Origin: an uncultured Candidatus Saccharibacteria bacterium
GTDB taxonomy: Bacteria > Patescibacteriota > Minisyncoccia > Phycocordibacterales > UBA2100
Reading direction: 5' to 3'
DNA length: 64,000 nt
Assembly: GCA_964586255.1 (NCBI GenBank)
Contig: CAZPGE010000003.1
Coordinates: forward strand, 2,537 to 66,536
A program made the position numbers and the translations under genes. Below the pieces are notes generated by a model. The model was not told the DNA's origin. It saw only the letters and a program-made list of their open reading frames with translations, and ran no database searches. Every line of letters starts with the position of its first letter. Position 1 is the stretch's first letter. Below are positions 2 to 23,539 of this stretch, one piece after another.

Positions 2-1501
2 TCGGTCTCTGGCAATGCGTACTTTGCAGGATCTGGAATCTGGAATTCGAGCGGGAGTGTAGGTGTCGGTACGACATCGCCGTACGCAAAGCTTGCGGTG
101 CAGGCGACGGCGGGGCAGACAAATCCTCTTTTTGATATTGCGAGCTCGAGCGTAGGCACGTCGTTCTTCACGATTACGTCATCCGGGAGTGTTGGTGTGG
201 GTACATCGAGTCCTTCTGCAAGATTGGAAGTTGTTCATACCTCCAGCGGTGCGACTGCGGAACAGCTTTATCTCACTAACTTTGCATCGGCTACGTCGAC
301 CGCTTCGAGGATGACCTTCCGCGCCGCAGACGTGTCGGGCAGTGCGACATCGACAGCTGCGATTACATCGATATTGCAGCAAAATTATACGACCGGCAAA
401 GGTGACCTTGCATTCTCGACGCTTCAGAGTGGCACACTCACAGAAGTTTTCCGCGCGACAAGTCTTGGTAATGTTGGCGTTGGTACCACCACCCCGCTTC
501 GTCGTTTTGCGGTGGAGCAAGCAGCGTCCGCCGCGCAATTCTCCGTGGCATACGACACGACGCGTGTCACAGAAATACAAACCGATTCTTCAGGCGATGC
601 AATCATTAATCCGTCGGGCGATGATATCCGCGTCAACGATGACAATCTCTGGGTCTGTAGTGGCGGTTCGTGTCCCTCGGGCACTCCGAGTGGCACCGGT
701 AACTTGCTTGTTGAAACGGCATTGGGTGTGGGCACATCGACGCCTGTGTGGCCCCTCACTGCCTCTCATACGACGCTCCCGCAACTCTCCCTCACTGACG
801 GCTCAGCGACAAGTAACGCATGGACATTCCGCAGCGTCACGAATACCCTTTACATTGCGACATCCACTGCGTCGGCGACATCGACGGTCGCTGCAGTCAC
901 TATTACGCCGAATGGGCGTTTCGGAGTAGGCACCTCCACACCGACCACCCTGCTCTCTGTGGGCGGTCTCTTGAGCGTGGGAGCGAGCTCGACCGGCCAA
1001 CTGGCCACGATGGGAACGGCCACCTCCACGTTTAACGGTGACATCAAGATTACGGGCAAGCTCGACGTGGGCACCATCGACCCGGTATACACCATAGCCG
1101 GCATAAAATACGCAACATACGGTCATTCGACAGTGGGTATCAAGGAAGAAACGGTGCAAACTATTCATCTCGAAAAAGCAGACGACGGGTCGTATGCATA
1201 CACAATCGATTTCGACCATCTCCAGAAAGGAAGTGATCTCTGGCTGTTCTACCAGATTACCGATTTTGGAAAGAATTGGAGTGCGCTTGTAGTCTCACTT
1301 ACGCCTTCATTTGAGGGCACGGTGTACTACAAAAAGAATGTCGCTGAAAATACACTCACCATCAAGAGCAATAAGAAGGGCGAGGTCTCGATGCGACTCG
1401 TGGGCAATCGCTTCGACTTCTCCAAGTGGCCGAATCTTCGCACCGACCAAGATGGAGACACGTCAGGGTCGCACGTGATACCGGTGAAATCCAGACAATA
1501 G
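2..1501 (+). CDS. Giant repetitive 'tail-fibre-like' surface protein, 5'-truncated by the window edge (paralogue of the next gene)
   Basis: The reading frame is open from base 2 with no stop, so the ORF-track start at 98 is not the real start. It has 'GNVGVGTTTP'-type repeats. One block (PLRRFAVEQAASAAQFSVAYDTTRVTEIQTDSSGD...DDNLWVCSGGSCPSGTP) and the ~130-aa C-terminal domain (KITGKLDVGTIDPVYTIAGIKYATYGHSTVGIKEE...NRFDFSKWPNLRTDQDGD) are near-identical to those of 1503..4874. Confidence 0.7.
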   Translation, partial: SVSGNAYFAGSGIWNSSGSVGVGTTSPYAKLAVQATAGQTNPLFDIASSSVGTSFFTITSSGSVGVGTSSPSARLEVVHTSSGATAEQLYLTNFASATSTASRMTFRAADVSGSATSTAAITSILQQNYTTGKGDLAFSTLQSGTLTEVFRATSLGNVGVGTTTPLRRFAVEQAASAAQFSVAYDTTRVTEIQTDSSGDAIINPSGDDIRVNDDNLWVCSGGSCPSGTPSGTGNLLVETALGVGTSTPVWPLTASHTTLPQLSLTDGSATSNAWTFRSVTNTLYIATSTASATSTVAAVTITPNGRFGVGTSTPTTLLSVGGLLSVGASSTGQLATMGTATSTFNGDIKITGKLDVGTIDPVYTIAGIKYATYGHSTVGIKEETVQTIHLEKADDGSYAYTIDFDHLQKGSDLWLFYQITDFGKNWSALVVSLTPSFEGTVYYKKNVAENTLTIKSNKKGEVSMRLVGNRFDFSKWPNLRTDQDGDTSGSHVIPVKSRQ

Positions 1502-4916: not shown

Positions 4917-5510
4917 ATGCACACACATATGCAGAAACGAACTCGGAAGATGATGGTTGCGGCAGTGATGGCGGCTTTAATTGGAGTTCCTTTGTTCGTG
5001 GGCGCGGTTGTTATCACGGAGACCAGTAGCGTGACCGGCCTCGCGAGCGTGCTCGGTGCCCTCTCAAAGGGCTCGGGCACATTCGTCATCGACCACCCAC
5101 TCGACCCCAAAAACAAGCTTCTCTATCACTCATTCGTCGAGTCGCCCGATGTAAAAAATCTCTACGATGGGATTGTACAGCTTGATGCGTATGGGGAAGC
5201 CGTCATAGAATTACCTGCGTATTTCCTCGCGCTCAACAAAGACTTCCGATACCTCGGTACTCCGGTAGGTGGGCCCATGCCAGAGCTTTACCTATCTAAA
5301 GAAGTTCATAAGCGTTATTTCAACGTGCTAGGTGCAATCTCGATACGCATATCGGGCGGTACTCCCAGCGGACGTGTATCTTGGCAGGTTACGGGTATTC
5401 GCCACGACAGATTCATCGAAGCGTACCCCATAGTCCCAGAAGTTGAAAAGGGGCCCGATGAGCTGGCAGATAAGGGCGAATACGTGTGTGAAGAATGCTA
5501 TGTGCAATAA
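4917..5510 (+). CDS. Small N-terminally anchored protein carrying the conserved 'IDHPLDP...SWQVTGIRHD' domain (paralogue 1 of 3)
   Basis: N-terminal hydrophobic segment. The domain reads SKGSGTFVIDHPLDPKNKLLYHSFVESPDVKNLYDGIVQLD...GGRVSWQVTGIRHD...EVEKGP and is shared with the next two genes. Confidence 0.65.
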   Translation: MHTHMQKRTRKMMVAAVMAALIGVPLFVGAVVITETSSVTGLASVLGALSKGSGTFVIDHPLDPKNKLLYHSFVESPDVKNLYDGIVQLDAYGEAVIELPAYFLALNKDFRYLGTPVGGPMPELYLSKEVHKRYFNVLGAISIRISGGTPSGRVSWQVTGIRHDRFIEAYPIVPEVEKGPDELADKGEYVCEECYVQ

Positions 5511-5513
5511 CAT

Positions 5514-6059
5514 ATGAGGATCTCTTCAGTCAGGCTGCTCATAATTCTTGCTGTCATACTCGTCCCGGGCGTAGTCGTGGCGGTAAAACTTACCGGCAAT
5601 GTACAATTTAGAGGCAGCCTTGCGATTTCGGGTGCCCTCTCAAAGGGCTCGGGCACATTCGTCATCGACCACCCACTCGACCCCAAAAACAAGCTTCTCT
5701 ATCACTCATTCGTCGAGTCGCCCGATGTAAAAAATCTCTACGATGGGATTGTACAGCTTGATGCCAACGGAGAGGCAGAAATAGAGTTACCGGAGTATTT
5801 TGACGCGCTCAATAAGGCGCCGCGGTATCAGTACTTTCCCCTCGACGAGGCGATGCCTGGCCTCTATGTTAAAGATGAGGAGAAAGAAAATGGATTCGTG
5901 ATTGCAGGAGGAGCGCCCGGGGGACGGGTGTCATGGCAGATTACCGGTATACGTCATGACCCGTATATACTGAGAAATCCAGTCCGCAATGAAGTGTGGA
6001 AAGGTCCAAACGAAGAAGTAGGCAGAGGCGAGTGTCTCTATGAACCCCTATGCGAATAA
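5514..6059 (+). CDS. Small N-terminally anchored protein with the same conserved domain (paralogue 2 of 3)
   Basis: Shares a 48-aa identical stretch (LSKGSGTFVIDHPLDPKNKLLYHSFVESPDVKNLYDGIVQLDA) with 4917..5510, and the C-terminal SWQITGIRHDPYILRNP...KGP motif. Confidence 0.65.
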   Translation: MRISSVRLLIILAVILVPGVVVAVKLTGNVQFRGSLAISGALSKGSGTFVIDHPLDPKNKLLYHSFVESPDVKNLYDGIVQLDANGEAEIELPEYFDALNKAPRYQYFPLDEAMPGLYVKDEEKENGFVIAGGAPGGRVSWQITGIRHDPYILRNPVRNEVWKGPNEEVGRGECLYEPLCE

Positions 6060-6811
6060 TTACACGGGCTACATGTTTCCTCTTGTTGCTGACGCCAATG
6101 AGCGCGCATGCATATTTCCAGGGTTATTATGAAGCCGCCTACTACTCGCAAGCAACCTACTATTCTCAGGCTACTTACTACTCGCAAGCAACCTACTATT
6201 CTCAGGCTACTTACTACTCGCAAGCAACCTACTATTCTCAGGCTACTTACTACTCGCAAGCCAGCTATCAGACGACGTTCACAAGAAATGCGTCTATCGT
6301 AGGAGGCCTCAGTGTGGCGGGGCACATCTCAAAGGGCTCAGGTACATTTGTCATCGATCACCCGCTCGACCCTTTCAATAAACTCCTCTTCCATTCGTTC
6401 CTCGAGTCGCCCGACGCAAAGAATCTCTACGACGGCATAGCGAAGCTCGACAAGGACGGCAGCGCGCGAGTCACGTTGCCGAAATACTTCGAAGCGCTTA
6501 ATACGGATTTTCGCTATCAGTTGAAGCCCGTTGGTGCGCCGATGCCACTACTTCATGTCCTGAGCGAGGTGTCGGACAATAGTTTCGCAATTGGCGGAGG
6601 CGTCGCTGGTGGAAAAGTCTCCTGGCAAGTCACGGGTACGCGCAAAGACCAGTACATTCTCGACAATCCCATAATTCCCGAAGTCGAGAAGGGTCCGGAG
6701 CAATTGGTTGAGAAAGGCCAGTATCTTTTTGCGGCGGGGTACGACAACGGCGGCATCCGATCAATTTTCTCCGGAATAGTAGACCTTTTGAACTCCCTGA
6801 TCGCCCGCTGA
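6050..6811 (+). CDS. Secreted protein with the same conserved domain plus an inserted (YYSQAT)n tandem repeat (paralogue 3 of 3)
   Basis: Signal-peptide-like N-terminus (LLLLTPMSAHA). Contains ISKGSGTFVIDHPLDPFNKLLFHSFLESPDAKNLYDG...KVSWQVTGTRKDQYILDNPIIPEVEKGP. Overlaps the previous gene by 10 nt. Confidence 0.65.
   Translation: MRIITRATCFLLLLTPMSAHAYFQGYYEAAYYSQATYYSQATYYSQATYYSQATYYSQATYYSQATYYSQASYQTTFTRNASIVGGLSVAGHISKGSGTFVIDHPLDPFNKLLFHSFLESPDAKNLYDGIAKLDKDGSARVTLPKYFEALNTDFRYQLKPVGAPMPLLHVLSEVSDNSFAIGGGVAGGKVSWQVTGTRKDQYILDNPIIPEVEKGPEQLVEKGQYLFAAGYDNGGIRSIFSGIVDLLNSLIAR
6131..6266 (+). repeat. In-frame tandem repeat, 36-nt unit x ~3.5 (encodes the YYSQAT hexapeptide about 7 times)
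   Basis: Unit 'tactcgcaagcaacctactattctcaggctacttac' repeats perfectly. It lies inside CDS 6050..6811. Confidence 0.85.
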
Positions 6812-6836: not shown

Positions 6837-8036
6837 ATGGGAAAGTTTGCCGTGAAATATACGATAATCCCCTTCTTCATTGCGCTTGTGTTCGGAGTCG
6901 GCTATTTCATCTTCGGTGCTAAGCCGTACGCTGAAGCATCCTCCATCGCCCGCGGCGTGGAGGACTTCAAGGAACTATCTCAGCGCTTCGTCGCTCTTTC
7001 AGAAAAGAAGAGTGCAGAGTATGCGTTTGAGATACTCCGACGCGCGGAGTTACCCCCGAATACGGATTTGCATCTGTTGGGGCACGTCGTGGGAGATGAA
7101 TTGTACAAACAGCAGGGGATAGACGGTATCGTCTTATGTACGCAGGATTTCCGCAACGCATGTTCGCATTCCATAGTCATAGGAGCACTCAATGAATTTG
7201 GCGGAGAACCCGCCCTTGCACGCATCCGCGACGCGTGCCGAAGAGCGCCAGGAGGTTCCGGTGCATATACCATGTGTTACCACGGGTTGGGCCATGGCAT
7301 TCTCGCCTTTTATGGGTACGATCTGGAGCCTACAATTGCGCTTTGCAAACAAGCCGGCACTTTGGAATATCGTGAGCGCGAATATATAGAGTGTGTGGGG
7401 GGAGCCGTAATGGAGCTCATGGGCGGTGGTGGTCATGACAGAAAGTTGTGGCTCGCGAGTAGGTCACGATACTTGAGTGGGGATACGCCTCTTGCGCCAT
7501 GCACGAGCGACGTCATTCCAAGTGAAATAAAACCGCTGTGCCTTGTCTACCTCACGCCACGACTCTGGGAATTGGCCGGCATCGACTTAGGACGTCCGGA
7601 CCCGTCACTTTTCTCGAAGGCATTTGCGATGTGCGACACGCTCTCTCGCTCACGGCAAGAATTACGTGCCGCATGTTTCGGAGGCTTCGGAAAAGAATTC
7701 ATTCCACTCGCAGGTGCGCGAGACATTCGAGGCGTGGACCGGTTTTCTGATGATGCGTATGCTCAAGCGATTGAGTGGTGTGGGTATGCACCTGCAGAAG
7801 ATGGTCGCACGGCATGTATTTCAGAGGCTTTGGCATCGATCTTCTGGGGCGGAGAGAATGACCCAGAGGCGAGTTTCCGGTTTTGCGCTCTTGTTTCTGA
7901 GTCTGGAATGCAAAGCGCATGCTACGGAAGCCTCGCGCGTAATATTCAGGACTACACGGAAGGTTCCGTGCGAAACGCGCTGTGCGCACGTATACCAGAA
8001 AAGGAGCGTATAGAGTGCACAATCTCAGGTATATGA
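6837..8036 (+). CDS. N-terminally anchored Cys/His-rich repeat protein (family member 1 of 5)
   Basis: The ORF-track start at 6813 is GTG; the ATG at 6837 precedes a TM helix (IIPFFIALVFGVGYFIFG). Recurrent C...C...GYxHGxGHG motifs (MCYHGLGHGILAFYGYD). About 20 Cys, mostly in pairs. Confidence 0.7.
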   Translation: MGKFAVKYTIIPFFIALVFGVGYFIFGAKPYAEASSIARGVEDFKELSQRFVALSEKKSAEYAFEILRRAELPPNTDLHLLGHVVGDELYKQQGIDGIVLCTQDFRNACSHSIVIGALNEFGGEPALARIRDACRRAPGGSGAYTMCYHGLGHGILAFYGYDLEPTIALCKQAGTLEYREREYIECVGGAVMELMGGGGHDRKLWLASRSRYLSGDTPLAPCTSDVIPSEIKPLCLVYLTPRLWELAGIDLGRPDPSLFSKAFAMCDTLSRSRQELRAACFGGFGKEFIPLAGARDIRGVDRFSDDAYAQAIEWCGYAPAEDGRTACISEALASIFWGGENDPEASFRFCALVSESGMQSACYGSLARNIQDYTEGSVRNALCARIPEKERIECTISGI

Positions 8037-9088
8037 CACGACGTACCCTTATAGCGATTGCACTCTGCGTTGTATTTGGGGCTGGTGGCATCGCAGTACG
8101 CCAGTATGCGACCGAGACCCAGAGCTCGTTGGCGAACAGGCAGCCGACTGAGAGCGAGAGAATATGGACGGAAAAAATACGTGCGCTTGGTGGCAAAGCG
8201 GCATACGCTTCGCTTGCAAAAGAGATAGAGGGTATGGCGCCGGAGGTTCAGCACACGAGCGCGCATGCATTTGGCGCAGCCCTCTTTGCTGTCGAAGATA
8301 ATGCTGGACTATCTGTGTGCGACGCGCGCTTCTCGTATGGGTGCTTCCACGAGTTCATGGGTAATTCGATCGCGTCGCACGGGCTCTCTGTCGTCAACGA
8401 ACTCAACGAGGGGTGTATCCGGGTACTAGTCAAAAGCCCGCTCTCTTGCCAGCACGGCATAGGACATGGAATATTAGCCTCTCTCGGATACGACGAGGAG
8501 TCCCTCATTACGTCACTCGGGGAATGCGCCAAACTTCCATACAGTGACCGTATAGGGGGATGCTATGGCGGTGTGTTCATGGAATACAATATGCAAACGA
8601 TGCTCGGTAAACAAGGGCACTTACGGTCGGCAGATTCCGAGGAGGGTTTGTACAAGCCGTGTGTCGGCTTGGAATCGAAGTACCATGCCTCGTGTGTATT
8701 TTGGCAGCCGCAATGGTGGCACATTGCAGTGCTGCATGCTGAAAGCAGCGAAGAATCGTTTGCGCAGCTTGGTACCTACTGCAGAGGAATGACACATACG
8801 AAAGAGTTACGTCGCGAGTGCTTCCAGGGTATTGGCAATATTACGAATCCGGCCACCGATTTCGATGTAGTGCGCTCGCGAGAACTATGCGATGCCACTT
8901 CTTCAGACCACCTTGAACGACTCTACTGTAGGGCGTATGCCGCCAACTCCCTCTTAAATGGGGGCGGAGGAAAAATCGGTGATGGGGATGCGTTGTGCGA
9001 CGGCTTACCCGAAAGTGAGCGAGAGTTCTGTCTTGCGTATGCGCGCAATGAGGCAAATTCAGCGAATGTGTTGGAATCTCCTCTATGA
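8033..9088 (+). CDS. N-terminally anchored Cys/His-rich repeat protein (family member 2)
   Basis: Start ATG overlaps the upstream stop (ATGA). TM helix (LIAIALCVVFGAGGIAV). Motifs include SCQHGIGHGILASLGYDEE and CDARFSYGCFHEF. Confidence 0.7.
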   Translation: MTRRTLIAIALCVVFGAGGIAVRQYATETQSSLANRQPTESERIWTEKIRALGGKAAYASLAKEIEGMAPEVQHTSAHAFGAALFAVEDNAGLSVCDARFSYGCFHEFMGNSIASHGLSVVNELNEGCIRVLVKSPLSCQHGIGHGILASLGYDEESLITSLGECAKLPYSDRIGGCYGGVFMEYNMQTMLGKQGHLRSADSEEGLYKPCVGLESKYHASCVFWQPQWWHIAVLHAESSEESFAQLGTYCRGMTHTKELRRECFQGIGNITNPATDFDVVRSRELCDATSSDHLERLYCRAYAANSLLNGGGGKIGDGDALCDGLPESEREFCLAYARNEANSANVLESPL

Positions 9089-10248
9089 AGCCAGTCTTCA
9101 CGGTGAGCGGCTTTCTCATAATCGCCGCATGTGCTTTTGCGCTTATATTTTTTGCTGATGTTCGCTCTGCGCATAGTGAAGCCCAGCGCATCGTGGAGAT
9201 TTGCTCAGGAGAATCAGCACATGCCGAGTGTTACGAACGGGAGGTTCCGAGATTGCTTCCCGACTATTCACTCACGCAGGCCTTCGACGTCATACGTCAG
9301 ATTCGGTTAATCGACCCTGCGTACCAATTTTGTCACGTGCTTGCGCATAAACTCGGAGAGAGAGTCGTCGCTGAAGACCCCGACAAATGGATAGATGCCA
9401 TCCCGCTCAATCCGACGGATGGCCTGTGTTCAAATGGATATATTCACGGGGTGTTGGGTGGCCGATTTCGAGCAGAGGTTCTTGAACCGGCGGCTCTCAG
9501 AAAACTCATACCAGACTTCACGAGAGCATGCGCGTCGAGGAAAGAGTGGCGCTCCAGCGAACTGGACCGCGCCATATGCAGCCACGGCATGGGGCATCTC
9601 TATATGTTTATCACCGATGCGGACATTCCGCTTTCCCTTTCGCTTTGTGAAGACACGATGCCTGAGCAGCTGAGGCGCGTATGCCGCGAGGGTGTATACA
9701 TGCAAATTTATCAGCCGCTCGAACCGGATGACTATCTACTCATTGAGCGCATGCCCATAAAGCCGACGAAAGAAACACTCCGTTCCTTCTGTGCACGATA
9801 CACGAAAGATGAGTATGAGGGCGCATGTCTGCGAGAGGGCTGGCCATTTTTCCGAGAAGAGCTAAAGACTGGCGAAGGCATAACGAAATTTTGCTCAGGC
9901 CAGCCAAATGACCGAGAAGAGATAGCGTGCTTCGAATCCACGCTCGCACTCTCGGGCAGATTCAATCTAGGGAATCAGGCCAAGGCGCTCTCGCTGTGCA
10001 ACGAGGTTGCGGATAAATGGAAGGCGATGTGTTATTCGAGTGCGGCACGCGCGATACTTGAAGAGGACAGGGCAGAAGGGAAAAAGGCTGTCGCATTTTG
10101 TAAGAGCGCGGCAAACGATCAGCAAGACGAGTGTCTCGGGCAGCTTGCAGACACTGCCAGCTTCGTTTTCGGCAACTCCTCCGAACAGAAAAGGTTTTGT
10201 TCTCTCCTCCCAGTCCAGCTTAAGGAGCGTTGCCTGGGACAGCCATAG
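9085..10248 (+). CDS. N-terminally anchored Cys/His-rich repeat protein (family member 3)
   Basis: ATGA overlap with the upstream gene. TM helix (FLIIAACAFALIFFA). Motifs include QFCHVLAHKLGE, CSNGYIHGVLGG and ICSHGMGHLYMF. Confidence 0.7.
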   Translation: MKPVFTVSGFLIIAACAFALIFFADVRSAHSEAQRIVEICSGESAHAECYEREVPRLLPDYSLTQAFDVIRQIRLIDPAYQFCHVLAHKLGERVVAEDPDKWIDAIPLNPTDGLCSNGYIHGVLGGRFRAEVLEPAALRKLIPDFTRACASRKEWRSSELDRAICSHGMGHLYMFITDADIPLSLSLCEDTMPEQLRRVCREGVYMQIYQPLEPDDYLLIERMPIKPTKETLRSFCARYTKDEYEGACLREGWPFFREELKTGEGITKFCSGQPNDREEIACFESTLALSGRFNLGNQAKALSLCNEVADKWKAMCYSSAARAILEEDRAEGKKAVAFCKSAANDQQDECLGQLADTASFVFGNSSEQKRFCSLLPVQLKERCLGQP

Positions 10249-10260
10249 ACGACGTCGATC

Positions 10261-11943
10261 CTAGAATTTCGCTCCTTCGTGAACTAGGAACTCACGCAGG
10301 TCGTGGGCGATGCGATCGCGGTGTTCGTCAAAGCGTATGTCCGAGTACGTGACAAGGGCGGGGAGAGTACCGTTACTTGTAGAGCGCGCCTTAGGTGTGA
10401 TGTACAGCATTTCTCTCGAAGTATCTGAGGCGAGAAGAAGTGTTGGGAATGCAGCGTGTGTGAGAAATAGCGTTTGCGCACTGAGGTCATGAGGTGCTCC
10501 CTCCGCATACGTATCAAGATTGTTTTGTGTAATACGTACGATATTGGCAACAATTAAATCGAGTCCCGCAGACCCACTGCTCCATAGAAGCACAATTTCC
10601 TCAAGCTCACGGAGTTCTCCTGGAGAATTCGCTTGCGTCAGCACTTCGATAAGTGCTTCGCGTGTGTACACATATGCGTCTGACTCGTACCATACGTCAC
10701 CGGTAGAAAGGAGCGCTGAGCGATACGTGCGTGCAATTTCAGGGTGACGCTCCGCGAACTTTGCGCTAGCGCGCACCGCCTTTGCTCTCGTAAGATCCGT
10801 GCCGACATCGGGGCACAGATAGAACATCGTGGGGTTAATACGACTGAAACGCATGTCGTACTTTTTAGCGAGATATTGCAGCATTGGCGCCTTCGTATTT
10901 TCTGTGGGAGAAAAGATCACATCACCCACATACCACAGCGGAGCGATACCTAGGGGCTCCTCATTTCCTACAATGACGACATGGGGGTGGGGTAGTTCGC
11001 GAAGGCACACACTTTGCGTGAGGACAATGGGAGTCGAATTAGTAAATATGGGGGACGCCCTTTTTGTGAAGGTCTCGGCGTACAGCGTTCTCACCGAATC
11101 TATTAGAGTCCGGGACGCAGTGGATACACGCGGCGTCTTTGCGGCCGAAAGTGGAAATGCACGGCCAAGTATGAGCGAATCGGGATAACAATTCTCGATG
11201 CGGCCTTTCAGGCATGCATCGAGTTCCTGCGACTGACTTCCGAGTCTCTCAAACTCGCTCTCTATGCTGCGCGAAGTATCCAGCATGCTTTGGACTGAAA
11301 TGCTGCCACCGAATCCCTGGAATTGAGCCTTCTTTCCTGCCGTTATGAGCTCGTATGTCTTACGGAAATACGTACTGTCTTGGCGGCCAGCGGCGAGCGC
11401 GCGTCTTAGAGACGCATGATACAAGTCTCCATCTGTATCCGTACCGGATGCAATAAATGTACGCCGCGCTTTCTCAAGCTCAGCAAGCGACAATAAAAAG
11501 TGAATCGGATAGAGGCTGCGTATGGCAGATGTTTCCTGTGCGGTCATTTGTACACCCGCCAACTCATCCATGACTTCAGCGAGTTGGTGTGTAGAATCTT
11601 CAAGAAGTTGCGGGTCGCTTCCGGCAGCACTTAAAAGCGGTGCGCGACTCGCAAGCGTACGCGCGTAAGCAAGACGAAGAGCATTTCGGGCCGCAGTCGT
11701 AGATGTTCTCATGCCGTCCTCAGCTTCGACAAGACCGCCATGAATTCTGAACGATTTCCCTCGATACACGACGACCTCCTCTGTGCTCATCGTTTGAAGC
11801 ACAGAAGAGAAAAATGTGTCTGCGGCAGCCTGTTCATGTCGGTATCGGACGGCCGAAGAGATGGCACTCGCGGCTGCGAGGCCGAGAATAGCGTAGGCGA
11901 TATACGTGCGAATCCGGGTACTCATGGCACTGTAAGCATACAT
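10261..11943 (-). CDS. Large N-terminally anchored hypothetical protein (paralogue A)
   Basis: 560 aa. N-terminal TM helix. Shares length, architecture and motifs (ALRLAYA...; HFLLSLAELEKARRTF versus DFLEELANLEVARRQF) with 11977..13650. Confidence 0.6.
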   Translation of the reverse strand: MYAYSAMSTRIRTYIAYAILGLAAASAISSAVRYRHEQAAADTFFSSVLQTMSTEEVVVYRGKSFRIHGGLVEAEDGMRTSTTAARNALRLAYARTLASRAPLLSAAGSDPQLLEDSTHQLAEVMDELAGVQMTAQETSAIRSLYPIHFLLSLAELEKARRTFIASGTDTDGDLYHASLRRALAAGRQDSTYFRKTYELITAGKKAQFQGFGGSISVQSMLDTSRSIESEFERLGSQSQELDACLKGRIENCYPDSLILGRAFPLSAAKTPRVSTASRTLIDSVRTLYAETFTKRASPIFTNSTPIVLTQSVCLRELPHPHVVIVGNEEPLGIAPLWYVGDVIFSPTENTKAPMLQYLAKKYDMRFSRINPTMFYLCPDVGTDLTRAKAVRASAKFAERHPEIARTYRSALLSTGDVWYESDAYVYTREALIEVLTQANSPGELRELEEIVLLWSSGSAGLDLIVANIVRITQNNLDTYAEGAPHDLSAQTLFLTHAAFPTLLLASDTSREMLYITPKARSTSNGTLPALVTYSDIRFDEHRDRIAHDLREFLVHEGAKF

Positions 11944-11976
11944 TTTTTCCCGTCTTCGGGCACTTTTCCCCTAAGG

Positions 11977-13650
11977 TCAGTTTGTATCGAGATCGAATGA
12001 GCGAAAGAACCGCATGTATGAAATAGCGTCGGTCGTGGACAGAGTCTCATTCGAGAGTTCGGAGAGCAGCGCATATGGTTGCACGTCGGCAGACAAGGTA
12101 TTTGCTGGGAAGATTTGGTCGGTACCGTGTAAGGTGATGTTGAGAGAATTCGGCACGAGAGATAAGAAACCGCTTCGCGCAAAAAATAAATATGTCGCAT
12201 CAAAATCAATCGCTGCTTCGGGGGGGAAATGCAAATGCTTGGTCTCGTATGTATTGATGTCGCGCACCACACCCAGGATTCCGTCGCTCTTTGTGCGCAT
12301 GCGGAGCCACAACGAGCGAACATCATGCGAAATGGACTCCGGGAAGTCTGGGCTTTCCGAAAGTGTCCGCGCGTAGGTGAGATATGTCTCGACGTCGGCT
12401 GTTGTGATTATGTAAGCGGAGGCAAACGTGTTCTCAAGGCGCTCGAGCTCGGTGGCAAGGTTTCCTGAAGCCCTCATACTCAAGGTCTGGCGCAATGCAA
12501 AGTCCTTCACGGCATACGCTGCCATTACAGTCCCGAGGTCTGCTTGGGCCCCCACACATTCATAGTACGAGAGCGAGCTCATGTACACATACGGAATATG
12601 ATGAGCCGCAAAATATCCTATATACGGCAGTCCCGCGTATGGAGCACTTTCTACAAAGAGAATGTCTCCCACAAAAAGAGGTGAGGGTAGGGTTCCGCTG
12701 CCATTGTCTCGCATAGAAAAGAGTGGAGCCGTGCTGGAGTTCAGTGGCGTACATGCACTGTCGGGGAGTAGAAGTAGTTGCGAAGAGGTAAATCGGTAGC
12801 CGGAGCGCTCAAATATGTCGAGTGCACGTCCGGCGAATGTACGTGCCTCCGGATGCACAGGAGCAGCGAAGGTCGTCTGAAATTCTGGTAGGAGAATTTC
12901 AGTAGACGTGCATGCGCGGACGTGGCCTCGGAAGCATGTGAAGCGATTGCGCATGGAATTCGCTACATTGCCAGCATCTTTCTCGAGCTGGTCGAGTGCG
13001 TCAATAAAGTCGTCTCTACTCACGATTGATTGCGGGGTCGCAAAGCTTGGCGCGTCCAGAGGGACGGCCTTCTTAAACGCACGCTCAAATGCCGCGCGGT
13101 CTCTTTGAAAGGCATGAACCGTAGATAAGAGCTGAATTCGATAGCGCCTTGCGCTCTCGTCGTCGCCCACATTGAGGAATTGTCTTCTGGCCACTTCGAG
13201 ATTTGCAAGCTCTTCGAGAAAGTCGATGGGATACAAAAAGTGTTGTACAGAAAAAGTCTGATTGGAGCGTGTTTGTCGCACGGCCAGTTGTGATGCGGTA
13301 GAGCGGAGATTGGTTACGGAAGCTCGAAAGAAATCGATATCGATGTCGGGCAGCGCGAGTAGTGGATTGTTGCGCGCAGCGGATTTTTCGTACGCGAGTC
13401 GGAGTGCGGTGCGCTCTACTGCTCCCGCGACAGGCCCCGCTTCGTTCGCAACGGCGCCGAGCGATACGCGATAGGATACTCCGCGTATAGATACGGTCTC
13501 TTCGATGTGAGCATCTCGAAGAGCATTTGAAAAAAATGCCACCTCCGTGCGTTTTGCAGAGATTACTGAAACGAGGAGAACAAATCCGAAAAGTGCAAAG
13601 AAAAAAAGAGGGGCACGCACGAAGCGTTTCGACGCGAGACAAGCACGCAT
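11977..13650 (-). CDS. Large N-terminally anchored hypothetical protein (paralogue B)
   Basis: 557 aa. N-terminal TM helix (LFFFALFGFVLLVSVI). Tandem paralogue of 10261..11943. Confidence 0.6.
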   Translation of the reverse strand: MRACLASKRFVRAPLFFFALFGFVLLVSVISAKRTEVAFFSNALRDAHIEETVSIRGVSYRVSLGAVANEAGPVAGAVERTALRLAYEKSAARNNPLLALPDIDIDFFRASVTNLRSTASQLAVRQTRSNQTFSVQHFLYPIDFLEELANLEVARRQFLNVGDDESARRYRIQLLSTVHAFQRDRAAFERAFKKAVPLDAPSFATPQSIVSRDDFIDALDQLEKDAGNVANSMRNRFTCFRGHVRACTSTEILLPEFQTTFAAPVHPEARTFAGRALDIFERSGYRFTSSQLLLLPDSACTPLNSSTAPLFSMRDNGSGTLPSPLFVGDILFVESAPYAGLPYIGYFAAHHIPYVYMSSLSYYECVGAQADLGTVMAAYAVKDFALRQTLSMRASGNLATELERLENTFASAYIITTADVETYLTYARTLSESPDFPESISHDVRSLWLRMRTKSDGILGVVRDINTYETKHLHFPPEAAIDFDATYLFFARSGFLSLVPNSLNITLHGTDQIFPANTLSADVQPYALLSELSNETLSTTDAISYMRFFRSFDLDTN

Positions 13651-13654
13651 TTCG

Positions 13655-13867
13655 TCAGTATATGCCCCCGCAGCTTATGAAGAAAATCTCGTCTTCGTAT
13701 GCGTCGGGAACGCATCGTGCCGCCGCTAAAGTGTTCCTGTCCGTATTACCCTCGGAGTGAGTAAACCAGCCATGCGTCGACGAGGTATCCCCATATACGA
13801 GTATCCCGATGATGCCAACGAAGCACCCGAAAAGGAATAATTTCAGTGTCCTCATGTGTACGACCAT
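13655..13867 (-). CDS. Small TM peptide ending ...EDEIFFISCGGIY (candidate precursor or substrate peptide)
   Basis: 70 aa with an N-terminal TM helix (LKLFLFGCFVGIIGILVY). Its C-terminus resembles that of 23586..23816 (...KMLFISCGGFLD). Lies immediately downstream of the PaaK-like gene 13931..15196. Confidence 0.45.
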   Translation of the reverse strand: MVVHMRTLKLFLFGCFVGIIGILVYGDTSSTHGWFTHSEGNTDRNTLAAARCVPDAYEDEIFFISCGGIY

Positions 13868-13930
13868 AGTTCTCTGTCAGTATATCGTCCGCGAGAAGAT
13901 TCGCTAGAAGAGAAGGTGCTCACGGAGTGC

Positions 13931-15196
13931 TCAATGCCGTACAATTCTTCGAATCTTTGTGCCCGGTACGAGTGTAAGGTGTTCACATGTAAGTGGCAGG
14001 TAACGCGCAGAGGCGACCCCCTCCGCGTACGACATGAAAGGCCCGACGCGTATGAGCGACGAAATATCGGCGGCAAACACATCAAGTTTTACATCGGCAC
14101 GCAATTCGATATGGAGGGCGAACTTTAACTGTGGGCCAGACGGAGTTTCAACCTCGGAATAGTGGAGCTCAAACACATCTGAAACCTGCGAGGGGAATAG
14201 TCTGAGCACGCGCGCTATTTCGTCTGCACGCAACAAGCCACCGGGGATTTTAATGAAATCCATATCAGTGCGGCCAAGTACCGTAAATGACCACATCCCA
14301 TGTTCGTGACAGGGCGCCTCCATGATGCGTATCGTGTCACCGATGCGGAAACGAATAAGTGGAAAGGATGCCGGCTCTCCGGGGTATGTCGTAACTAAGA
14401 GATCACCTTCCGCGCCCACGCTCGGCTCGATGATGTTGCCGCTCTCGGCGTCGAGCAGTTCCAAGTAGTGTGTCTCTTTCGGGTGGTAATGGGCGATTGG
14501 TTCAAGAAGTGTAAGTGGTCGACATGGCATGCCCATATGCGCATCCTCGATTTCGCTTGAATTGTACGATTGTACGATAGTGGCATTGGGGAATGTATCG
14601 TGCATGTACTGTATTTGTGCACGGCTGCACACCTCCCCGGTCACTTCAATAAATCGAATTTCCGTATTGTTACCGAGCGCCTTCATTTCTTCTCCGATAT
14701 CGCGCACGTGGTATACAAATGCCGAAAATGCGTCTGCACCCGCCGCTTGCGCGAGTCTCGCCGACGCGCGCGGCTCTCTCGGGTCGAGGCATAGTACGTG
14801 CGGGGAACCGCCGTGCTCCTTTTGAAACGTTTCGTGCCAATGGGGCATCAAGGGTACGGTGAATGCCAGGAATGGTCTCTTGAAGTCATGGAAACGGAGT
14901 CGGTAGTCCATGCCTCGCACGTGCGTGCGAGGGGAAAAGAGTGGAATTTTGCCGCTTGTGCCGGACGATGCGCGCACGTGGTCAAGATTGGAAAGTGGAA
15001 TGAAGGATCGTTCCGCGAGTGCTTTGCGGGCAAGTGCGTCCTTTGTGAGAATCGGAAGCGCGCGCCAGCCGTCCATATCTTGGAGGTCGAGCGCAGGGGC
15101 ATCATGCGATAGACCATACAACTCGCGATAGAACGTGTTGTTGCCTGACCGTGTCGCGCGAGCAGCCAGGGCGTACAGGTCTTTTTGGGAAAGCAT
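13931..15196 (-). CDS. Adenylate-forming enzyme of the PaaK / coenzyme-F390-synthetase-like (ANL) family
   Basis: P-loop SSGTSGKIPLF, A7-like LIRFRIGDT, hinge-region GRTDMDFIKIPGG. 421 aa. Confidence 0.7.
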   Translation of the reverse strand: MLSQKDLYALAARATRSGNNTFYRELYGLSHDAPALDLQDMDGWRALPILTKDALARKALAERSFIPLSNLDHVRASSGTSGKIPLFSPRTHVRGMDYRLRFHDFKRPFLAFTVPLMPHWHETFQKEHGGSPHVLCLDPREPRASARLAQAAGADAFSAFVYHVRDIGEEMKALGNNTEIRFIEVTGEVCSRAQIQYMHDTFPNATIVQSYNSSEIEDAHMGMPCRPLTLLEPIAHYHPKETHYLELLDAESGNIIEPSVGAEGDLLVTTYPGEPASFPLIRFRIGDTIRIMEAPCHEHGMWSFTVLGRTDMDFIKIPGGLLRADEIARVLRLFPSQVSDVFELHYSEVETPSGPQLKFALHIELRADVKLDVFAADISSLIRVGPFMSYAEGVASARYLPLTCEHLTLVPGTKIRRIVRH

Positions 15197-15249
15197 ACTT
15201 GAAAACTATCGCACGCTCTCCCTGCTACCACAATTGCGGATGACCCTCT

Positions 15250-16302
15250 GTGTTCTATAATCACGTTATGCAAATGAACTGGATACGGGCAATCGTAGCC
15301 GTCGTGGTGATTGGGCTAGCCGCGTACGCCATATTCTTCCACAAAGCGACAGGAAGTGATGCGTCAGGTGCGTCGCGCACGGTGACGTGGCTTCTCTCAC
15401 ATCAGCCTACTGACGTCTTTGCCCGCGCAGCCGATGTGTTCGACGAGACTCTCCAAAGAGAGAGCGGAGGGAGTCTTTCTCTCGTACTCATGAAGCCCGA
15501 AGATATTGGAGTTGAAAAAGGCGACGTACCGCATGCAAAAGTGCTTGAGCAACTGAGTTTGGGCACTGCCGATATTGCCTCGGTCTATACCATACCGCTG
15601 GGGAATGAGTACCAGGATTTTCAGATGCTCAACCTGCCGTTCCTCTTCGGCTCATATGAAGAGGCGAATGCCTCGCTCGACGGAGCTGCATTATCGATTC
15701 TTGATACGCGCATGGACAACGTGAGGGGGCTCGCGTTCACTATGAGCGGAGGGCTACGCATCATTGCGTCGAGGAATACGGATATCCGAAAGATGAGCGA
15801 CCTGAAAGGTAAGCGCATTGCGACATCAGGCGGCGCTGTCGCGGAAGCGACCCTTGTGGCGCTTGGCGCCATTCCCGTGCCTCTTGATCTCGAGAATGAT
15901 GGTTCACGCGATTTTTCTTCCATCGATGGCGTAGAGACTACATATGCTCGCCTCTCGACGGCGCTTGGCTCAAACACTGCATTTACTTCACATATAAACG
16001 AGACAAATCACAGTGTGTTTCTCACGGCGATTATCGCGAGCGATACATTCTTCGATTCACTGACGCCCGTCGAGCAAGCGGCGCTCATCTCTGCGGCTCG
16101 TGCCGCGGCGAAAGTCGAACGGCAGGACTCTATCGCACTCAACGCCACGGTAAAAGAGGCGCTTCGTGCGAAAGGGAGCACTGTGAACGAAATATCTCCC
16201 GTGTCTCATCAGGAATTCGTGAACGCAACGAAGGCCGTATACCGGGAGTTTATGTCCCGCTTTTCACCGGATGTCTATGATGCGGTAGTGGGGGAGCGCT
16301 GA
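15250..16302 (+). CDS. Membrane-anchored TRAP-type (DctP-family-like) solute-binding protein, orphan (no DctQ/DctM nearby)
   Basis: N-terminal TM helix. Segments NLPFLFGSYEEANASLDG, DLKGKRIATSGG and ALGAIPVPLDLEN match the DctP fold consensus as I recall it. Confidence 0.55.
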   Translation: MFYNHVMQMNWIRAIVAVVVIGLAAYAIFFHKATGSDASGASRTVTWLLSHQPTDVFARAADVFDETLQRESGGSLSLVLMKPEDIGVEKGDVPHAKVLEQLSLGTADIASVYTIPLGNEYQDFQMLNLPFLFGSYEEANASLDGAALSILDTRMDNVRGLAFTMSGGLRIIASRNTDIRKMSDLKGKRIATSGGAVAEATLVALGAIPVPLDLENDGSRDFSSIDGVETTYARLSTALGSNTAFTSHINETNHSVFLTAIIASDTFFDSLTPVEQAALISAARAAAKVERQDSIALNATVKEALRAKGSTVNEISPVSHQEFVNATKAVYREFMSRFSPDVYDAVVGER

Positions 16303-17099
16303 GCGTTCTGCGCCCGGACAATTGTTTTCCCACAGACGCAGAGCCCCACTTCATCTGTGGTCAGACTGGTTTCGTAACGTATGAGGGGCAGTGGATCATC
16401 AATGTGGCCCGTGACGAGTGCATTGGTCCCGTGTTCCCAGGTGTACCCTGCGCCGACATGAAAGGAGAATTCTTTTCCTGCGATGTGTGCACACTGTTCG
16501 AGAACGGGCACCCCGGGTATTAGATGAATCTCTTGTACGAGTGTACGAGCCGAGTTCGTCAGTGCGGGTACGAGTGGCACCATGGAATCGCTTTTCTGTA
16601 CGATGTGCCATGTATCAGGAAATGAGAGACCGTTCACCATAAGAAATGTTGCGAACTCATTTGCGTCTGCAGCGTCTGTGACCACGACCGCAACTGATGA
16701 GCGAAGTATCGCCATCGCCCCGAGGGGCATGTTCCCCTTGTCGTTAACAAAAATAAAAAGACCTTGCTTGTTACACGCTGAAAAAAGCGGGATTTCGACT
16801 TGCCAAAAAAGCGGCAGGCGGACCATCAGCCCACGGCCCTCGTGATCGGCCAGCGTCCTCTCTATCGAGTCCCATCGCCATGATTCTGCGCGAGGGAATA
16901 TGGTGAGCGATGAGTCGCTGGGTGAAAACGAGCTCGGAACGTAGCGTCCTCGTAGGGATTGTGTATGCGTCAAAACTTTCTTTAATGAAATCGCAAGCGT
17001 CTCTGGCGTCATCTGTCGCTCCTCAATCTCTACGCCAGCACGTGCCCATTTCGCGCGCTCCGCAGCCGCTGCCTGTGAAATTCCTACGTCGTCCTGCAT
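16275..17099 (-). CDS. P-loop-less PaaK-like paralogue (degenerate adenylate-forming-enzyme homologue)
   Basis: Ends with a PaaK A7-like region (PLPLIRYETSLTTDEVGLCVCGK) but has no SxGTTG P-loop and no C-terminal subdomain. Same architecture as 24968..25750. Confidence 0.5.
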   Translation of the reverse strand: MQDDVGISQAAAAERAKWARAGVEIEERQMTPETLAISLKKVLTHTQSLRGRYVPSSFSPSDSSLTIFPRAESWRWDSIERTLADHEGRGLMVRLPLFWQVEIPLFSACNKQGLFIFVNDKGNMPLGAMAILRSSVAVVVTDAADANEFATFLMVNGLSFPDTWHIVQKSDSMVPLVPALTNSARTLVQEIHLIPGVPVLEQCAHIAGKEFSFHVGAGYTWEHGTNALVTGHIDDPLPLIRYETSLTTDEVGLCVCGKTIVRAQNAQRSPTTAS

Positions 17100-17167
17100 A
17101 GCGCGAATCCTAGCATAGTGGTACTACGCAGCTCTGTGACACGGATGCACCGTGATTGTGGCGTCTG

Positions 17168-17635
17168 TTACATCGCTCCACCAAACAAGATCACGTCCGC
17201 ATTCGCGCGCTCCGCGCGCCACTTACGAGAAAGATCAACAGCAATAAGCATGCCAGGAGAAAGATCGGCGAGTGAGCCTGAGGCGGTCTCGGAGAAGCCC
17301 ACATACACTCCGTCGGAGGATATGAGACTTTGTCTGATAAAGAGGGTAACCTCGCTCACATCGATGGTGAGAGTCACATTTTCTTGTCCAGCTAAAATCT
17401 GATTTCTAAGAATTATGGTGAGTTGGTTTTTCGGAACATCGACACCGACGACTTCGGCGTGCCAAAGTGTCGAGCGTTGTGATAGAAGACTGCGCTCGGT
17501 CTCGTATTGAGCTACGAGCTTAGCGTATGTGCTTTGAAGGGTGTCATATGCATAACGATAGCTGAATGTTGCAAAAGCAAGTCCAGAGAGGCTCGCTGCA
17601 ATCACGACCACACCGGCAATATTCAGGATTTTCAT
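17168..17635 (-). CDS. Small N-terminally anchored hypothetical protein
   Basis: 155 aa. TM helix (IAGVVVIAASLSGLAFATF). Weak similarity to the adjacent 17632..18111 gene (VVGVDVPKNQLTIIL versus IVESVDLTQREITILV). Confidence 0.4.
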   Translation of the reverse strand: MKILNIAGVVVIAASLSGLAFATFSYRYAYDTLQSTYAKLVAQYETERSLLSQRSTLWHAEVVGVDVPKNQLTIILRNQILAGQENVTLTIDVSEVTLFIRQSLISSDGVYVGFSETASGSLADLSPGMLIAVDLSRKWRAERANADVILFGGAM

Positions 17636-22978: not shown

Positions 22979-23539
22979 ATGAGTACAAAGGCGACACCGT
23001 ATATCTATTTTTCGGGTGTTTTGCTCGGCACCCTTCTTAGTGTTGGAAGTGCTTCCGTTTTGGCTCCTCAGCATGTGCTCGCCCATTCACTTGGCGCATC
23101 TTTCGAAGCGACCTCCTCGCCGTACCGCGTCGACGTGGGGTATGACCCTGTCGACTTTTTGGCCGGAGACGCAAGTCGATTTGACTTCGACTTGCGCGAA
23201 GAGTCCGGCCCTATCACTGACTACGATTACGTGTGGGTCAGAATAACGAAAGAAAAAAAGACGCTTTTTGCCACGGGCATCGAGCGGCAGACGCTCGGAC
23301 CCACGACACTTGTCTATACATTTGATACACCCGGTGATTACGTGCTGCATGTAAGTTACCGACAAGGCGCAGACGTGATGGCGGAAGCCTCGTTTCCATT
23401 CACGGTTCTCTTAAGCGACTCCGGTCCCGCGATTCCTGCGGATGCCCTCATGGGGTTTGGAATTGGTGCCGTCCTCTCCATTGCTGCAGCATCTCTCTGG
23501 CTCAGACTCCGCCGCGTACCAATGCGAAACGTGCTCTAG
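22979..23539 (+). CDS. Hypothetical secreted protein with a C-terminal TM anchor
   Basis: Internal ATG precedes a signal-like segment (YFSGVLLGTLLSVGSASVLA). C-terminal helix (GFGIGAVLSIAAASLWL) followed by a basic tail. Confidence 0.45.
   Translation: MSTKATPYIYFSGVLLGTLLSVGSASVLAPQHVLAHSLGASFEATSSPYRVDVGYDPVDFLAGDASRFDFDLREESGPITDYDYVWVRITKEKKTLFATGIERQTLGPTTLVYTFDTPGDYVLHVSYRQGADVMAEASFPFTVLLSDSGPAIPADALMGFGIGAVLSIAAASLWLRLRRVPMRNVL

Follow-up and report, generated by a model that had tools for sequence, protein, structure and literature searches.

A CPR-wide family of membrane-anchored helical-hairpin proteins with conserved cysteine pairs and a penta-His set, encoded in ordered arrays with cupredoxin-fold partners

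What are the five paralogous, membrane-anchored proteins encoded in this DNA from a Candidatus Saccharibacteria bacterium, and what might they do outside the membrane? The sequence-only reading of the window (the whole stretch of 64,000 nucleotides analyzed here) had singled out five ORFs, and a family HMM run on all window ORFs matched exactly the same five, called A to E here (Table 1). Pairwise identity among them is 21-25%. Each has one strongly hydrophobic segment within its first ~30 residues, preceded by K/R, in agreement with the single N-terminal transmembrane helix that had been claimed. The claimed length of 370-450 aa fits A, C, D and E but not B. The coupling of the first three genes is also correct: the A/B (8033-8036) and B/C (9085-9088) junctions are ATGA overlaps. 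D starts 4 nt past the stop of a preceding multi-TM/TPR gene.

Table 1. Family members and neighboring features in the window (nucleotide positions of the window).
Feature	Position	Strand	Description
Three tandem secreted paralogues with 'SKGSGTFVIDHPLDP' domain	4917..6811	+	Upstream of array in 24 of 79 loci
Member A, 399 aa	6837..8036	+	N-terminal anchor and eight Cys-pair helical hairpins
Family signature CxHGxGH in A (C147-Y-H149-G-L-G-H153)	7275..7295	+	Hairpin 2, second helix
Member B, 351 aa	8033..9088	+	Seven Cys pairs
Member C, 387 aa	9085..10248	+	C78/H115 subtype; nine Cys pairs
Two paralogous ~560-aa proteins	10261..13650	-	N-terminal anchor, without known domain; near array in 12 loci
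Member D, 450 aa	19992..21344	+	Anchor, then cupredoxin-like domain, then helical Cys/His domain
Stand-alone membrane-anchored cupredoxin-like protein, 128 aa	21365..21751	+	0 Cys; PF13473 E=3.7e-5
Member E, 400 aa	21744..22946	+	C78/H115 subtype; N at position 192
Ig-like neighbor	22979..23539	+	Signal peptide, Ig-like beta-sandwich, C-terminal TM anchor

The ectodomain is built from roughly eight two-helix units that are homologous to one another, and every unit has a co-varying Cys pair. The paired Cys that the sequence-only reading had noticed have the form C-x(7-15)-C and recur every ~35-45 aa, and the homology of the eight units is supported by hhalign, in which 13 of 28 unit pairs reached at least 85% probability compared with none of 56 reversed controls. 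The AF2 model of A (pLDDT 92.6, pTM 0.87) contains paired helices only. Cys makes up 3.3-4.9% of the five members, versus 1.8% of the remaining long ORFs in the window, and the ectodomain totals are all even (A, 16; B, 14; C, 18; D, 14; E, 16).

The Cys pairs probably form structural disulfides, a view well supported by several indirect lines of evidence. We examined conservation in a set of 567 unique domains, among which paralogues are only ~20-25% identical. Cys 266 and 280 are both present in 453 of these domains, both absent from 102, and found singly in only 12; the pair 383/394 is missing from 111. C109 alternates between two mutually exclusive partners, C101 and C78. Direct coupling analysis (DCA) places C266-C280 at rank 9 among 74,309 pairs, and the pairs 315-327, 350-362 and 383-394 are likewise recovered. 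Together with the outward topology, the even Cys totals and the all-alpha model, these patterns favor the disulfide-stabilized scaffold that had been suggested. The cysteines could instead be redox-active in a thiol relay or bind Cu(I) as a thiolate store, as in the Csp copper-storage proteins. This would suit the 14-18 ectodomain Cys per protein, in evenly spaced pairs, and the slightly higher conservation of the helix-B Cys over its helix-A partner, but we consider it very improbable: CxxC motifs are absent from these proteins, the two Cys of a pair, 7-15 residues apart on two helices, are placed as is typical of structural staples, and the location is an oxidizing one, with an MdbA-like oxidoreductase and VKOR enriched in CPR genomes (preprint 10.1101/335083). 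Since the pairs come and go whole and some members do without particular pairs, stabilization fits better than an obligatory relay or metal cluster.

The sequence-only reading had allowed that profile searches might place these repeats in a characterized family; none did. The helical domain has no match in Pfam-A or NCBIfam (E<=1) or in PHROGs, and hmmscan against Pfam-A (E<=1) found no Sel1 (PF08238), TPR or HEAT match in the five proteins. Among PDB sequences, profiles built from A1 and A2 found no relevant match (the top one was the ARM-like tail of aminopeptidase N, E=0.015), and a search for a specific fold match to the helical domain found none. The published lipocone superfamily was considered and is unrelated to the penta-His family. 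Our literature search found no description of the family.

The histidines are distributed differently from what had been claimed. His accounts for 1.5-3.4% of residues compared with a background of 2.6%, so there is no overall enrichment and the proteins are not His-rich. The His/Cys signatures are present, and their conservation across the 567 domains is far beyond chance, but they do not recur within a protein: C-x-H-G-x-G-H and G-x-x-H-G each occur once, in the same alignment column in all paralogues. The true repeating element is the Cys-pair hairpin and not the His motif. Across hundreds of orthologues and paralogues, the conserved His/Cys positions are 99% kept. In A, the set comprises H79, H83, H111, H149 and H153, plus M192. 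H79, H83, H149 and H153 are each conserved in 99% of the 567 domains, and the fifth His is at position 111 in 69% and at 115 in 31%. C109, C134, C147, C186, C235, C315 and C327 are conserved at 99-100% (C147 at 100%), G150, G152 and G189 at 90-100% (G152 at 100%), and M192 at 82%. In degenerate internal copies (P0121 and P0122), several of the His are lost jointly, leaving the pattern HRYH|RE|Y.

These histidines may cluster in space. DCA places helices B1, B2 and B3 in register (R106-M146, rank 16; L156-A190, rank 33; I115-L156, rank 64); its signal is convincing both for the Cys pairs and for this packing, whereas that for H79/H83 is ambiguous. DSSP assigns a single helix across residues 78-100 of the AF2 model and, if that helix is straight, H79 and H83 would be distant from H111. 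The G82-A108 coupling, an argument for proximity, mostly follows the split between A-type and B-type orthogroups.

The presence of five divergent paralogues within 16 kb had been called notable for a reduced genome. It is not a local oddity but a conserved gene-cluster state found throughout the ultra-small CPR bacteria. At 50% identity, the family clusters into 6,366 representatives, and all of its named sources are Patescibacteria/CPR; a search with A-type orthologues alone as query gave 132 species, a minimum that covers a single paralogue. In 79 CPR loci, the family forms arrays of 3-8 paralogues with the core order A-B-C, of which A is the head gene; B follows A in 53 loci and C follows B in 39. 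A recent local expansion is ruled out because the five genes map to orthogroups whose order is kept across CPR. In other genomes, A and B are fused in a single polypeptide (P0001, P0004 and P0020), as are A and a C-like domain (P0025), and multi-domain relatives hold 2-7 family domains. Because the genes are coupled here and fused elsewhere, we suspect that the A, B, C and D/E types are made together.

A cupredoxin-fold domain is the recurrent partner of the family. It is present in 54 of the 79 CPR loci, and at least 17 of 150 representatives contain it as a fused domain, at the N-terminus, internally or at the C-terminus. In D, it occupies ~nt 20061-20357, followed by the helical Cys/His domain at ~nt 20352-21329 (Cupredoxin_1, E=0.002; cupredoxin HMM, E=9e-48; family HMM, E=3e-60). 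The final codons of the stand-alone cupredoxin gene overlap the start of E, and E with its own cupredoxin gene is the split-gene counterpart of the fused architecture of D. The cupredoxin domain of D and the gene at 21365-21751 had both been overlooked by the earlier reader.

Judged by sequence homology, the partner domain of D and of the stand-alone ORF belongs to the cupredoxin superfamily. A profile of 24 partner sequences matched the cupredoxin domain of NirK (E=9e-6), amicyanin (1e-5) and plastocyanin (1e-4). The copies in the window are below the Pfam cut-offs; a relative, P0188, is above them for both PF13473 and PF00127, and other databases annotate relatives as cupredoxin or plastocyanin. 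The invariant residues of the partner are H79, H82, D89, H113, D114 and H115 (partner numbering), in the motifs HPxH, FD and HDH. In a HMMER alignment with amicyanin, the four type-1 ligand positions are Ser, Asp, Arg and Phe, and in a MAFFT alignment with plastocyanin the Cys and Met are lost and the position of His87 is retained as H93. A role as a blue-copper electron carrier is ruled out by the absence of the type-1 ligands (His, Cys, His, Met). Because the partner lacks all of these ligands, copper is a guess from the fold and the His content; if the partner does bind copper, the site would probably be a type-2-like one of His and Asp, not a blue electron-transfer site.

One other fusion could point to a different function. 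A relative of 3,580 aa combines seven family domains with a GH3 glycosidase domain, and the family could act outside the membrane as an enzyme on glycans or peptidoglycan of its own cell or a host, with the polymer held in the groove and catalysis falling to the His cluster, whether or not this binds Zn. Solenoid grooves commonly bind polymers, and His clusters beside Gly are a common mark of active sites. We nevertheless find an enzyme of this kind rather improbable: the GH3 fusion is the sole case among the 150 representatives whereas the cupredoxin fusion recurs, apart from His, Cys, Gly and Met, the positions at 80% conservation or above offer no acid or nucleophile, and comparisons with hydrolase and lyase families found no likeness in sequence or fold.

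The remaining neighbors are further secreted or anchored proteins. The Ig-like neighbor adjoins the family in 22 of the 79 CPR loci. Its signal peptide is closed by an invariant Ala-His, and the N-terminus of the mature protein would therefore be His. By structure, its best compact matches are CrdA and PmoD, both copper proteins; many non-metal Ig-like domains match with a Z that is as high or higher. Copper transporters, chaperones and copper enzymes were not found within the window. Neighbors such as these, and the FG-GAP-like and HEAT/LRV segments in giant multi-domain relatives, would also suit a non-catalytic envelope scaffold or adhesin, in which the solenoids bind host-cell or cell-wall polymers or anchor other proteins and the His and Gly matter only for helix packing or pH sensing. 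This we consider unlikely. Five His at 99% across paralogues of ~20% identity are atypical of mere packing, and the His are lost jointly in degenerate copies. Only one domain, the cupredoxin-fold one with its own invariant His/Asp set, recurs as a fusion partner, and orthologues are 45-78% identical rather than hypervariable, as adhesins often are.

We postulate that the family makes up a hetero-oligomeric metalloprotein module outside the membrane, with copper as the likeliest metal, although we would give this reading slightly less than an even chance. The metal binding (Cu or Zn) proposed by the sequence-only reading gains from the recurrent cupredoxin-fold fusion and from the predicted N-terminal His of the Ig-like neighbor, and loses from the lack of any type-1 copper ligand in the fused cupredoxin. 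In the metalloprotein model, the N-terminal hydrophobic segment would tether each protein to the outside of the cytoplasmic membrane, and the ectodomain would be an alpha-solenoid of about eight homologous hairpins, each stapled by one disulfide that joins a Cys where helix A ends to one a turn into helix B. Two and six positions after the helix-B Cys, the first three hairpins carry H111 (or H115), H149, H153 and M192, and these could form, with H79 and H83, a pocket for a transition-metal ion; we favor copper, with zinc and iron as alternatives. The A, B, C and D/E paralogues might assemble side by side with the Cys-free, four-His cupredoxin-fold module and the small Ig-like protein with its N-terminal His. 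The resulting CPR-specific complex at the cell surface could serve metal handling or redox chemistry. CPR bacteria mostly lack cytochromes and classical respiratory chains. As a more speculative extension, which strikes us as distinctly improbable, the penta-His solenoids and Cys-free cupredoxins could form a surface-exposed, heme-free, multi-center copper chain or oxidase, with up to seven domains in a polypeptide or 3-8 co-expressed paralogues, that exchanges electrons with oxygen, nitrite or a host. This would be extracytoplasmic redox machinery of a kind not known before.

The CPR/Patescibacteria are a large part of bacterial diversity, and most of the surface proteins specific to their lineages lack a functional assignment. 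The family described here is among the larger such blocks, with several copies per genome even though the genomes are smaller than 1 Mb, and because a reduced genome keeps it in a fixed gene order, we suspect that its role is important. That a disulfide-stapled solenoid holds a penta-His pocket and works with an atypical cupredoxin is a defined and testable hypothesis. If copper binding proves true, the family would provide a new metal-site scaffold and would indicate surface redox chemistry or metal handling in organisms held to be almost purely fermentative, a capacity that bears on interactions with hosts and on oxygen and nitrogen oxides. The family merits at least a Pfam/InterPro domain entry.

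Several known systems resemble parts of this family. The Hcp proteins of Helicobacter (HcpA/B/C, Sel1-like) are also extracytoplasmic repeats of alpha/alpha-hairpins, and in their structures the two helices of each repeat are joined by a disulfide, as we predict for the Cys pairs here. The family described here differs in having no Sel1 profile match, units of 35-45 aa with C-x(7-15)-C, a membrane anchor, an invariant penta-His set, obligatory multi-paralogue arrays and cupredoxin fusions; we know of no Hcp protein with the anchor, the penta-His set, the arrays or the fusion. The likeness to LanC-like proteins is superficial: GxxHG, CxGG and C-x-HG motifs occur in both, on the inner helices of hairpin repeats. 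The zinc ligands of LanC are Cys, Cys and His. A LanC-like zinc enzyme is ruled out by profile and fold, since the family has neither a LANC_like profile match nor the seven-fold alpha/alpha toroid. Type-3 copper proteins (tyrosinase and hemocyanin) and hemerythrin-like di-iron proteins have centers of five or six ligands with His borne on helices, and an HxxxH with a single His on adjacent helices resembles the set found here, a likeness that we treat only as a lead. For the Ig-like neighbor only, the comparison is with periplasmic Ig-like copper proteins of the CrdA, PmoD and CopC/YcnI type; it may also belong with the histidine-brace or PCuAC-like proteins, which combine a mature N-terminal His with a beta-sandwich that binds copper. 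Lastly, the likeness to the type-1 cupredoxins amicyanin, plastocyanin and NirK is one of sequence homology and concerns the partner domain only; in contrast to those proteins, the partner has its ligands replaced, and the stand-alone copy in the window is free of Cys.

The five membrane-anchored Cys/His family genes (A-E) named by the sequence-only reading are all present in the window, and the ATGA stop/start overlaps that it described occur at the A/B and B/C junctions. Each product also has the claimed N-terminal transmembrane helix, a single strongly hydrophobic 19-residue segment in the first ~30 residues with Lys/Arg ahead of it, and thus the bulk of A-E should lie outside the cytoplasmic membrane. 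Of all window ORFs, exactly these five matched the family HMM; they are true but old paralogues (21-25% mutual identity).

Family members, cupredoxin-like partners and neighbouring genes
Feature	Position	Strand	Remark
Member A	6837-8036	+	399 aa
Member B	8033-9088	+	351 aa
Member C	9085-10248	+	387 aa
Member D	19992-21344	+	450 aa
Member E	21744-22946	+	400 aa
Cupredoxin-like domain of D	residues ~24-122	+	PF13473 E=0.002, sub-threshold
Stand-alone anchored cupredoxin-like protein, 128 aa	21365-21751	+	PF13473 E=3.7e-5, sub-threshold
Secreted 'SKGSGTFVIDHPLDP' paralogues, three in tandem	4917-5510, 5514-6059, 6050-6811	+	beside family in 24/79 CPR loci
Two ~560-aa paralogous N-terminally anchored proteins	10261-11943, 11977-13650	-	relatives adjoin array in 12 CPR loci
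625-aa protein, many predicted TM segments, TPR-like C-terminus	18110-19987	+	weak PPTA repeat match only

Profile searches left the helical domain outside any characterized family. No Pfam, NCBIfam or PHROG model matched it even at E<=1, PDB sequence profiles gave nothing relevant, and we found no published description of the family in the literature. A word-indexed protein search returned 869 matches, every one annotated 'hypothetical' and lacking a Pfam domain, and an exhaustive search of 50%-identity representatives returned 6,366 at E<=1e-3 (4,559 at E<=1e-10). All named sources are Patescibacteria/CPR (Kaiserbacteria, Nomurabacteria, Adlerbacteria, Paceibacteria, Minisyncoccia and some Microgenomates), and the A-type orthologue alone occurs in at least 132 species genomes. 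Among 79 CPR loci around an A-type gene, with members typed by closest window paralogue, only 5 have a single member; the others have 2-8, most commonly 3-6. The conserved core order is A-B-C, with B next after A in 53 loci and C next after B in 39, and D/E-type members often come after it. Some relatives have A and B fused into one polypeptide (P0001, P0004, P0020) or A fused with a C-like member (P0025), and tandem-domain relatives carry 2-7 family domains in up to 3,580 aa. Thus, the window array is not a local expansion. It is a standard CPR cluster in two blocks, with an insertion at 10261-19987 between them.

Two giant relatives end in other domains. P0121, a protein of 3,580 aa encoded on a contig of 831 kb, combines seven tandem family domains with a C-terminal GH3 glycosidase domain and HEAT/LRV repeats, and P0173 has three tandem family domains with FG-GAP-like propeller repeats at the end. 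A-E could be enzymes acting on glycan or peptidoglycan, a reading suggested by this single GH3 fusion; we consider this unlikely.

Cys makes up 3.3-4.9% of A-E compared with 1.8% of other long window ORFs. The proposed His richness is not seen (1.5-3.4% compared with 2.6%). The ectodomains of A, B, C, D and E contain 16, 14, 18, 14 and 16 Cys, not counting the one that B, C, D and E each have in their hydrophobic anchor, and these are paired as C-x(7-15)-C every ~35-45 residues. An AlphaFold2 model of A from a 43-sequence alignment (pLDDT 92.6, pTM 0.87) consists exclusively of paired helices, in which the first Cys of a pair ends one helix and the second lies 1-2 turns into the next. The eight hairpin units are homologous by profile-profile comparison: 13 of 28 unit pairs align in register at >=85% probability, versus 0 of 56 in a reversed-profile control (median 2.7%). 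Thus, the reported repeat exists as a unit of two helices and two Cys, but each protein has the CxHGxGH and GxxHG motifs only once, and all paralogues share their positions.

The Cys pairs are gained and lost unit-wise. In 567 unique near-full-length domains (database matches plus the 79 genomic loci) aligned to the family HMM, pair 266/280 (member A numbering) has both Cys in 453, neither in 102 and one in 12, and pair 383/394 has both in 426, neither in 111 and one in 30. C109 has mutually exclusive partners, C101 in A/B-type members (with H111) and C78 in C/D/E-type members (with H115). Mean-field DCA of this alignment ranks C266-C280 9th of 74,309 pairs and also recovers 315-327, 350-362 and 383-394. 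Pairwise gain and loss, DCA and the outward topology argue for one predicted disulfide per hairpin; that the paired Cys serve in thiol-based redox chemistry or bind Cu(I) as thiolates seems very improbable. MdbA-like oxidoreductases and VKOR are enriched in CPR genomes (preprint 10.1101/335083).

The main His and Cys positions are conserved among relatives (99-100% of the 567 domains). H79, H83, H149 and H153 are each 99% conserved, and a fifth His is at position 111 in 69% and one helical turn further, at 115, in 31%. C109, C134, C147, C186, C235, C315, C327, G152 and G189 reach 99-100%, and G86 and G150 ~90%. Position 192 is Met in 82%, nearly always so with H111 and about equally Met or Asn with H115 (e.g., D and E).

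We judged proximity of these residues from repeat register and DCA. On helix B, H111 of unit 1 and H149 of unit 2 occupy Cys+2, and Cys+6 is filled by H115 in unit 1, H153 in unit 2 and M192 in unit 3. DCA couplings (R106-M146, rank 16; L156-A190, rank 33; I115-L156, rank 64) support a model in which helix B of units 1-3 would be packed parallel, roughly in register. A predicted stripe of H111/H115, H149/H153 and M192 across units 1-3 is reasonably supported by this packing and the repeat register. A location of H79/H83 near H111 is less certain. It is suggested by the alternative pairing of C109 with C78 and by the DCA coupling of G82 to A108 at rank 8, which reflects a GA/AG size swap; however, the swap mostly tracks the A-type versus B-type split, and DSSP on the A model shows a single helix at 78-100. 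The rare domains missing one conserved His usually miss several. For example, one internal copy in each of the giants P0121 and P0122 lacks three of the five simultaneously, as expected if those His act together.

A cupredoxin-like domain is essentially the sole recurrent fusion partner of the helical domain in 150 representatives; its HMM detects fusion, N-terminal, internal or C-terminal, in at least 17. It is found at 54 of the 79 loci. In the window it occurs within D and as a stand-alone ORF whose last codons overlap the E start. The relative P0188 scores above the Pfam thresholds of both Cupredoxin_1 and Copper-bind, and a 24-sequence partner profile matches the NirK C-terminal cupredoxin domain (E=9e-6), amicyanin (E=1e-5) and plastocyanin (E=1e-4). 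In the alignment of this profile to amicyanin, the type-1 ligand positions are Ser, Asp, Arg and Phe; in a MAFFT alignment to plastocyanin, Cys and Met are likewise lost and the His87 position is kept. The stand-alone protein has no Cys. Invariant residues of the partner domain (own numbering) are H79, H82, D89, H113, D114 and H115, with motifs WPASxxHPxH, FD and HDH. The homology, the ligand loss and this separate His/Asp set indicate that the domain is a cupredoxin by fold and not a blue-copper protein, an identity ruled out by the replaced type-1 ligands. If copper is bound at all, it would be at the His/Asp site. In 18 CPR loci (L050:5325-5837 and equivalents), the gene immediately upstream of the A-type gene encodes another small cupredoxin-like protein, which does contain Cys (motif ...GYGCDASTGAVGM...); the window lacks it.

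Among the other neighbours, the 'SKGSGTFVIDHPLDP' proteins share a conserved 'SKGSGTFVIDHPLDPxNKLLxHSFxESPDxKNLYDG' domain and match nothing in Pfam, PHROG or PDB. The third contains a perfect tandem repeat (6138-6261, + strand; 36-nt x 3.4, or 18-nt x 6.9) coding for (YYSQAT)n, which also gives rise to a spurious antisense ORF (6038-6325); similar YY[AS]Q repeats precede a Hint/intein-like segment at another CPR locus (L042:295-1800). No known domain was found in the ~560-aa paralogues. The 625-aa ORF stops 4 nt before the D ATG, and this spacing suggests co-transcription with D. Within the insertion is a DctP-type TRAP solute-binding protein (15250-16302, +; PF03480 E=1e-34), with no DctQ/DctM membrane components adjacent. 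The cluster halves are flanked by ORF 13931-15196 (-, 421 aa, no match) and ORF 23863-24966 (+, 367 aa), which weakly resembles AMP-binding enzymes (E=1.5e-4, sub-threshold). Housekeeping genes (GAPDH, transketolase, aldolase, gyrB, pheT, dnaE, prfA) make up the rest of the window.

We tentatively propose, with slightly less than even confidence, that the family forms an extracytoplasmic metal-binding complex. The ectodomains would be alpha-solenoids stapled by disulfides, the first three hairpins could offer a conserved His (and Met) pocket to a transition metal, and the paralogues and the atypical cupredoxin module may act jointly. Such solenoids could instead be a non-catalytic scaffold or adhesin, which we regard as unlikely. 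For the metal-binding complex, we favour copper, less firmly than metal binding as a whole, because of the cupredoxin fold and a CrdA/PmoD-like neighbour (an Ig-like anchored protein, 22979-23539, with a predicted mature N-terminal His). The main weaknesses include the loss of the classical cupredoxin site and the lack of a copper transporter or copper enzyme near the cluster. There is a modest chance that these proteins form a redox system of a genuinely new type, heme-free and with multiple centres.

Both components have counterparts among known proteins. The Hcp/Sel1-like repeat proteins of Helicobacter are helical hairpins stapled by disulfides, and the architecture here is alike, with predicted disulfides; A-E do not match the Sel1 profile. 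Some motifs are reminiscent of LanC, yet fold and profile are both against that identity. The partner domain belongs to the cupredoxin superfamily but not to the type-1 copper proteins. We rate the system, a helical-repeat ectodomain plus a cupredoxin-fold partner, as a variation on known kinds of protein that falls within no described family.
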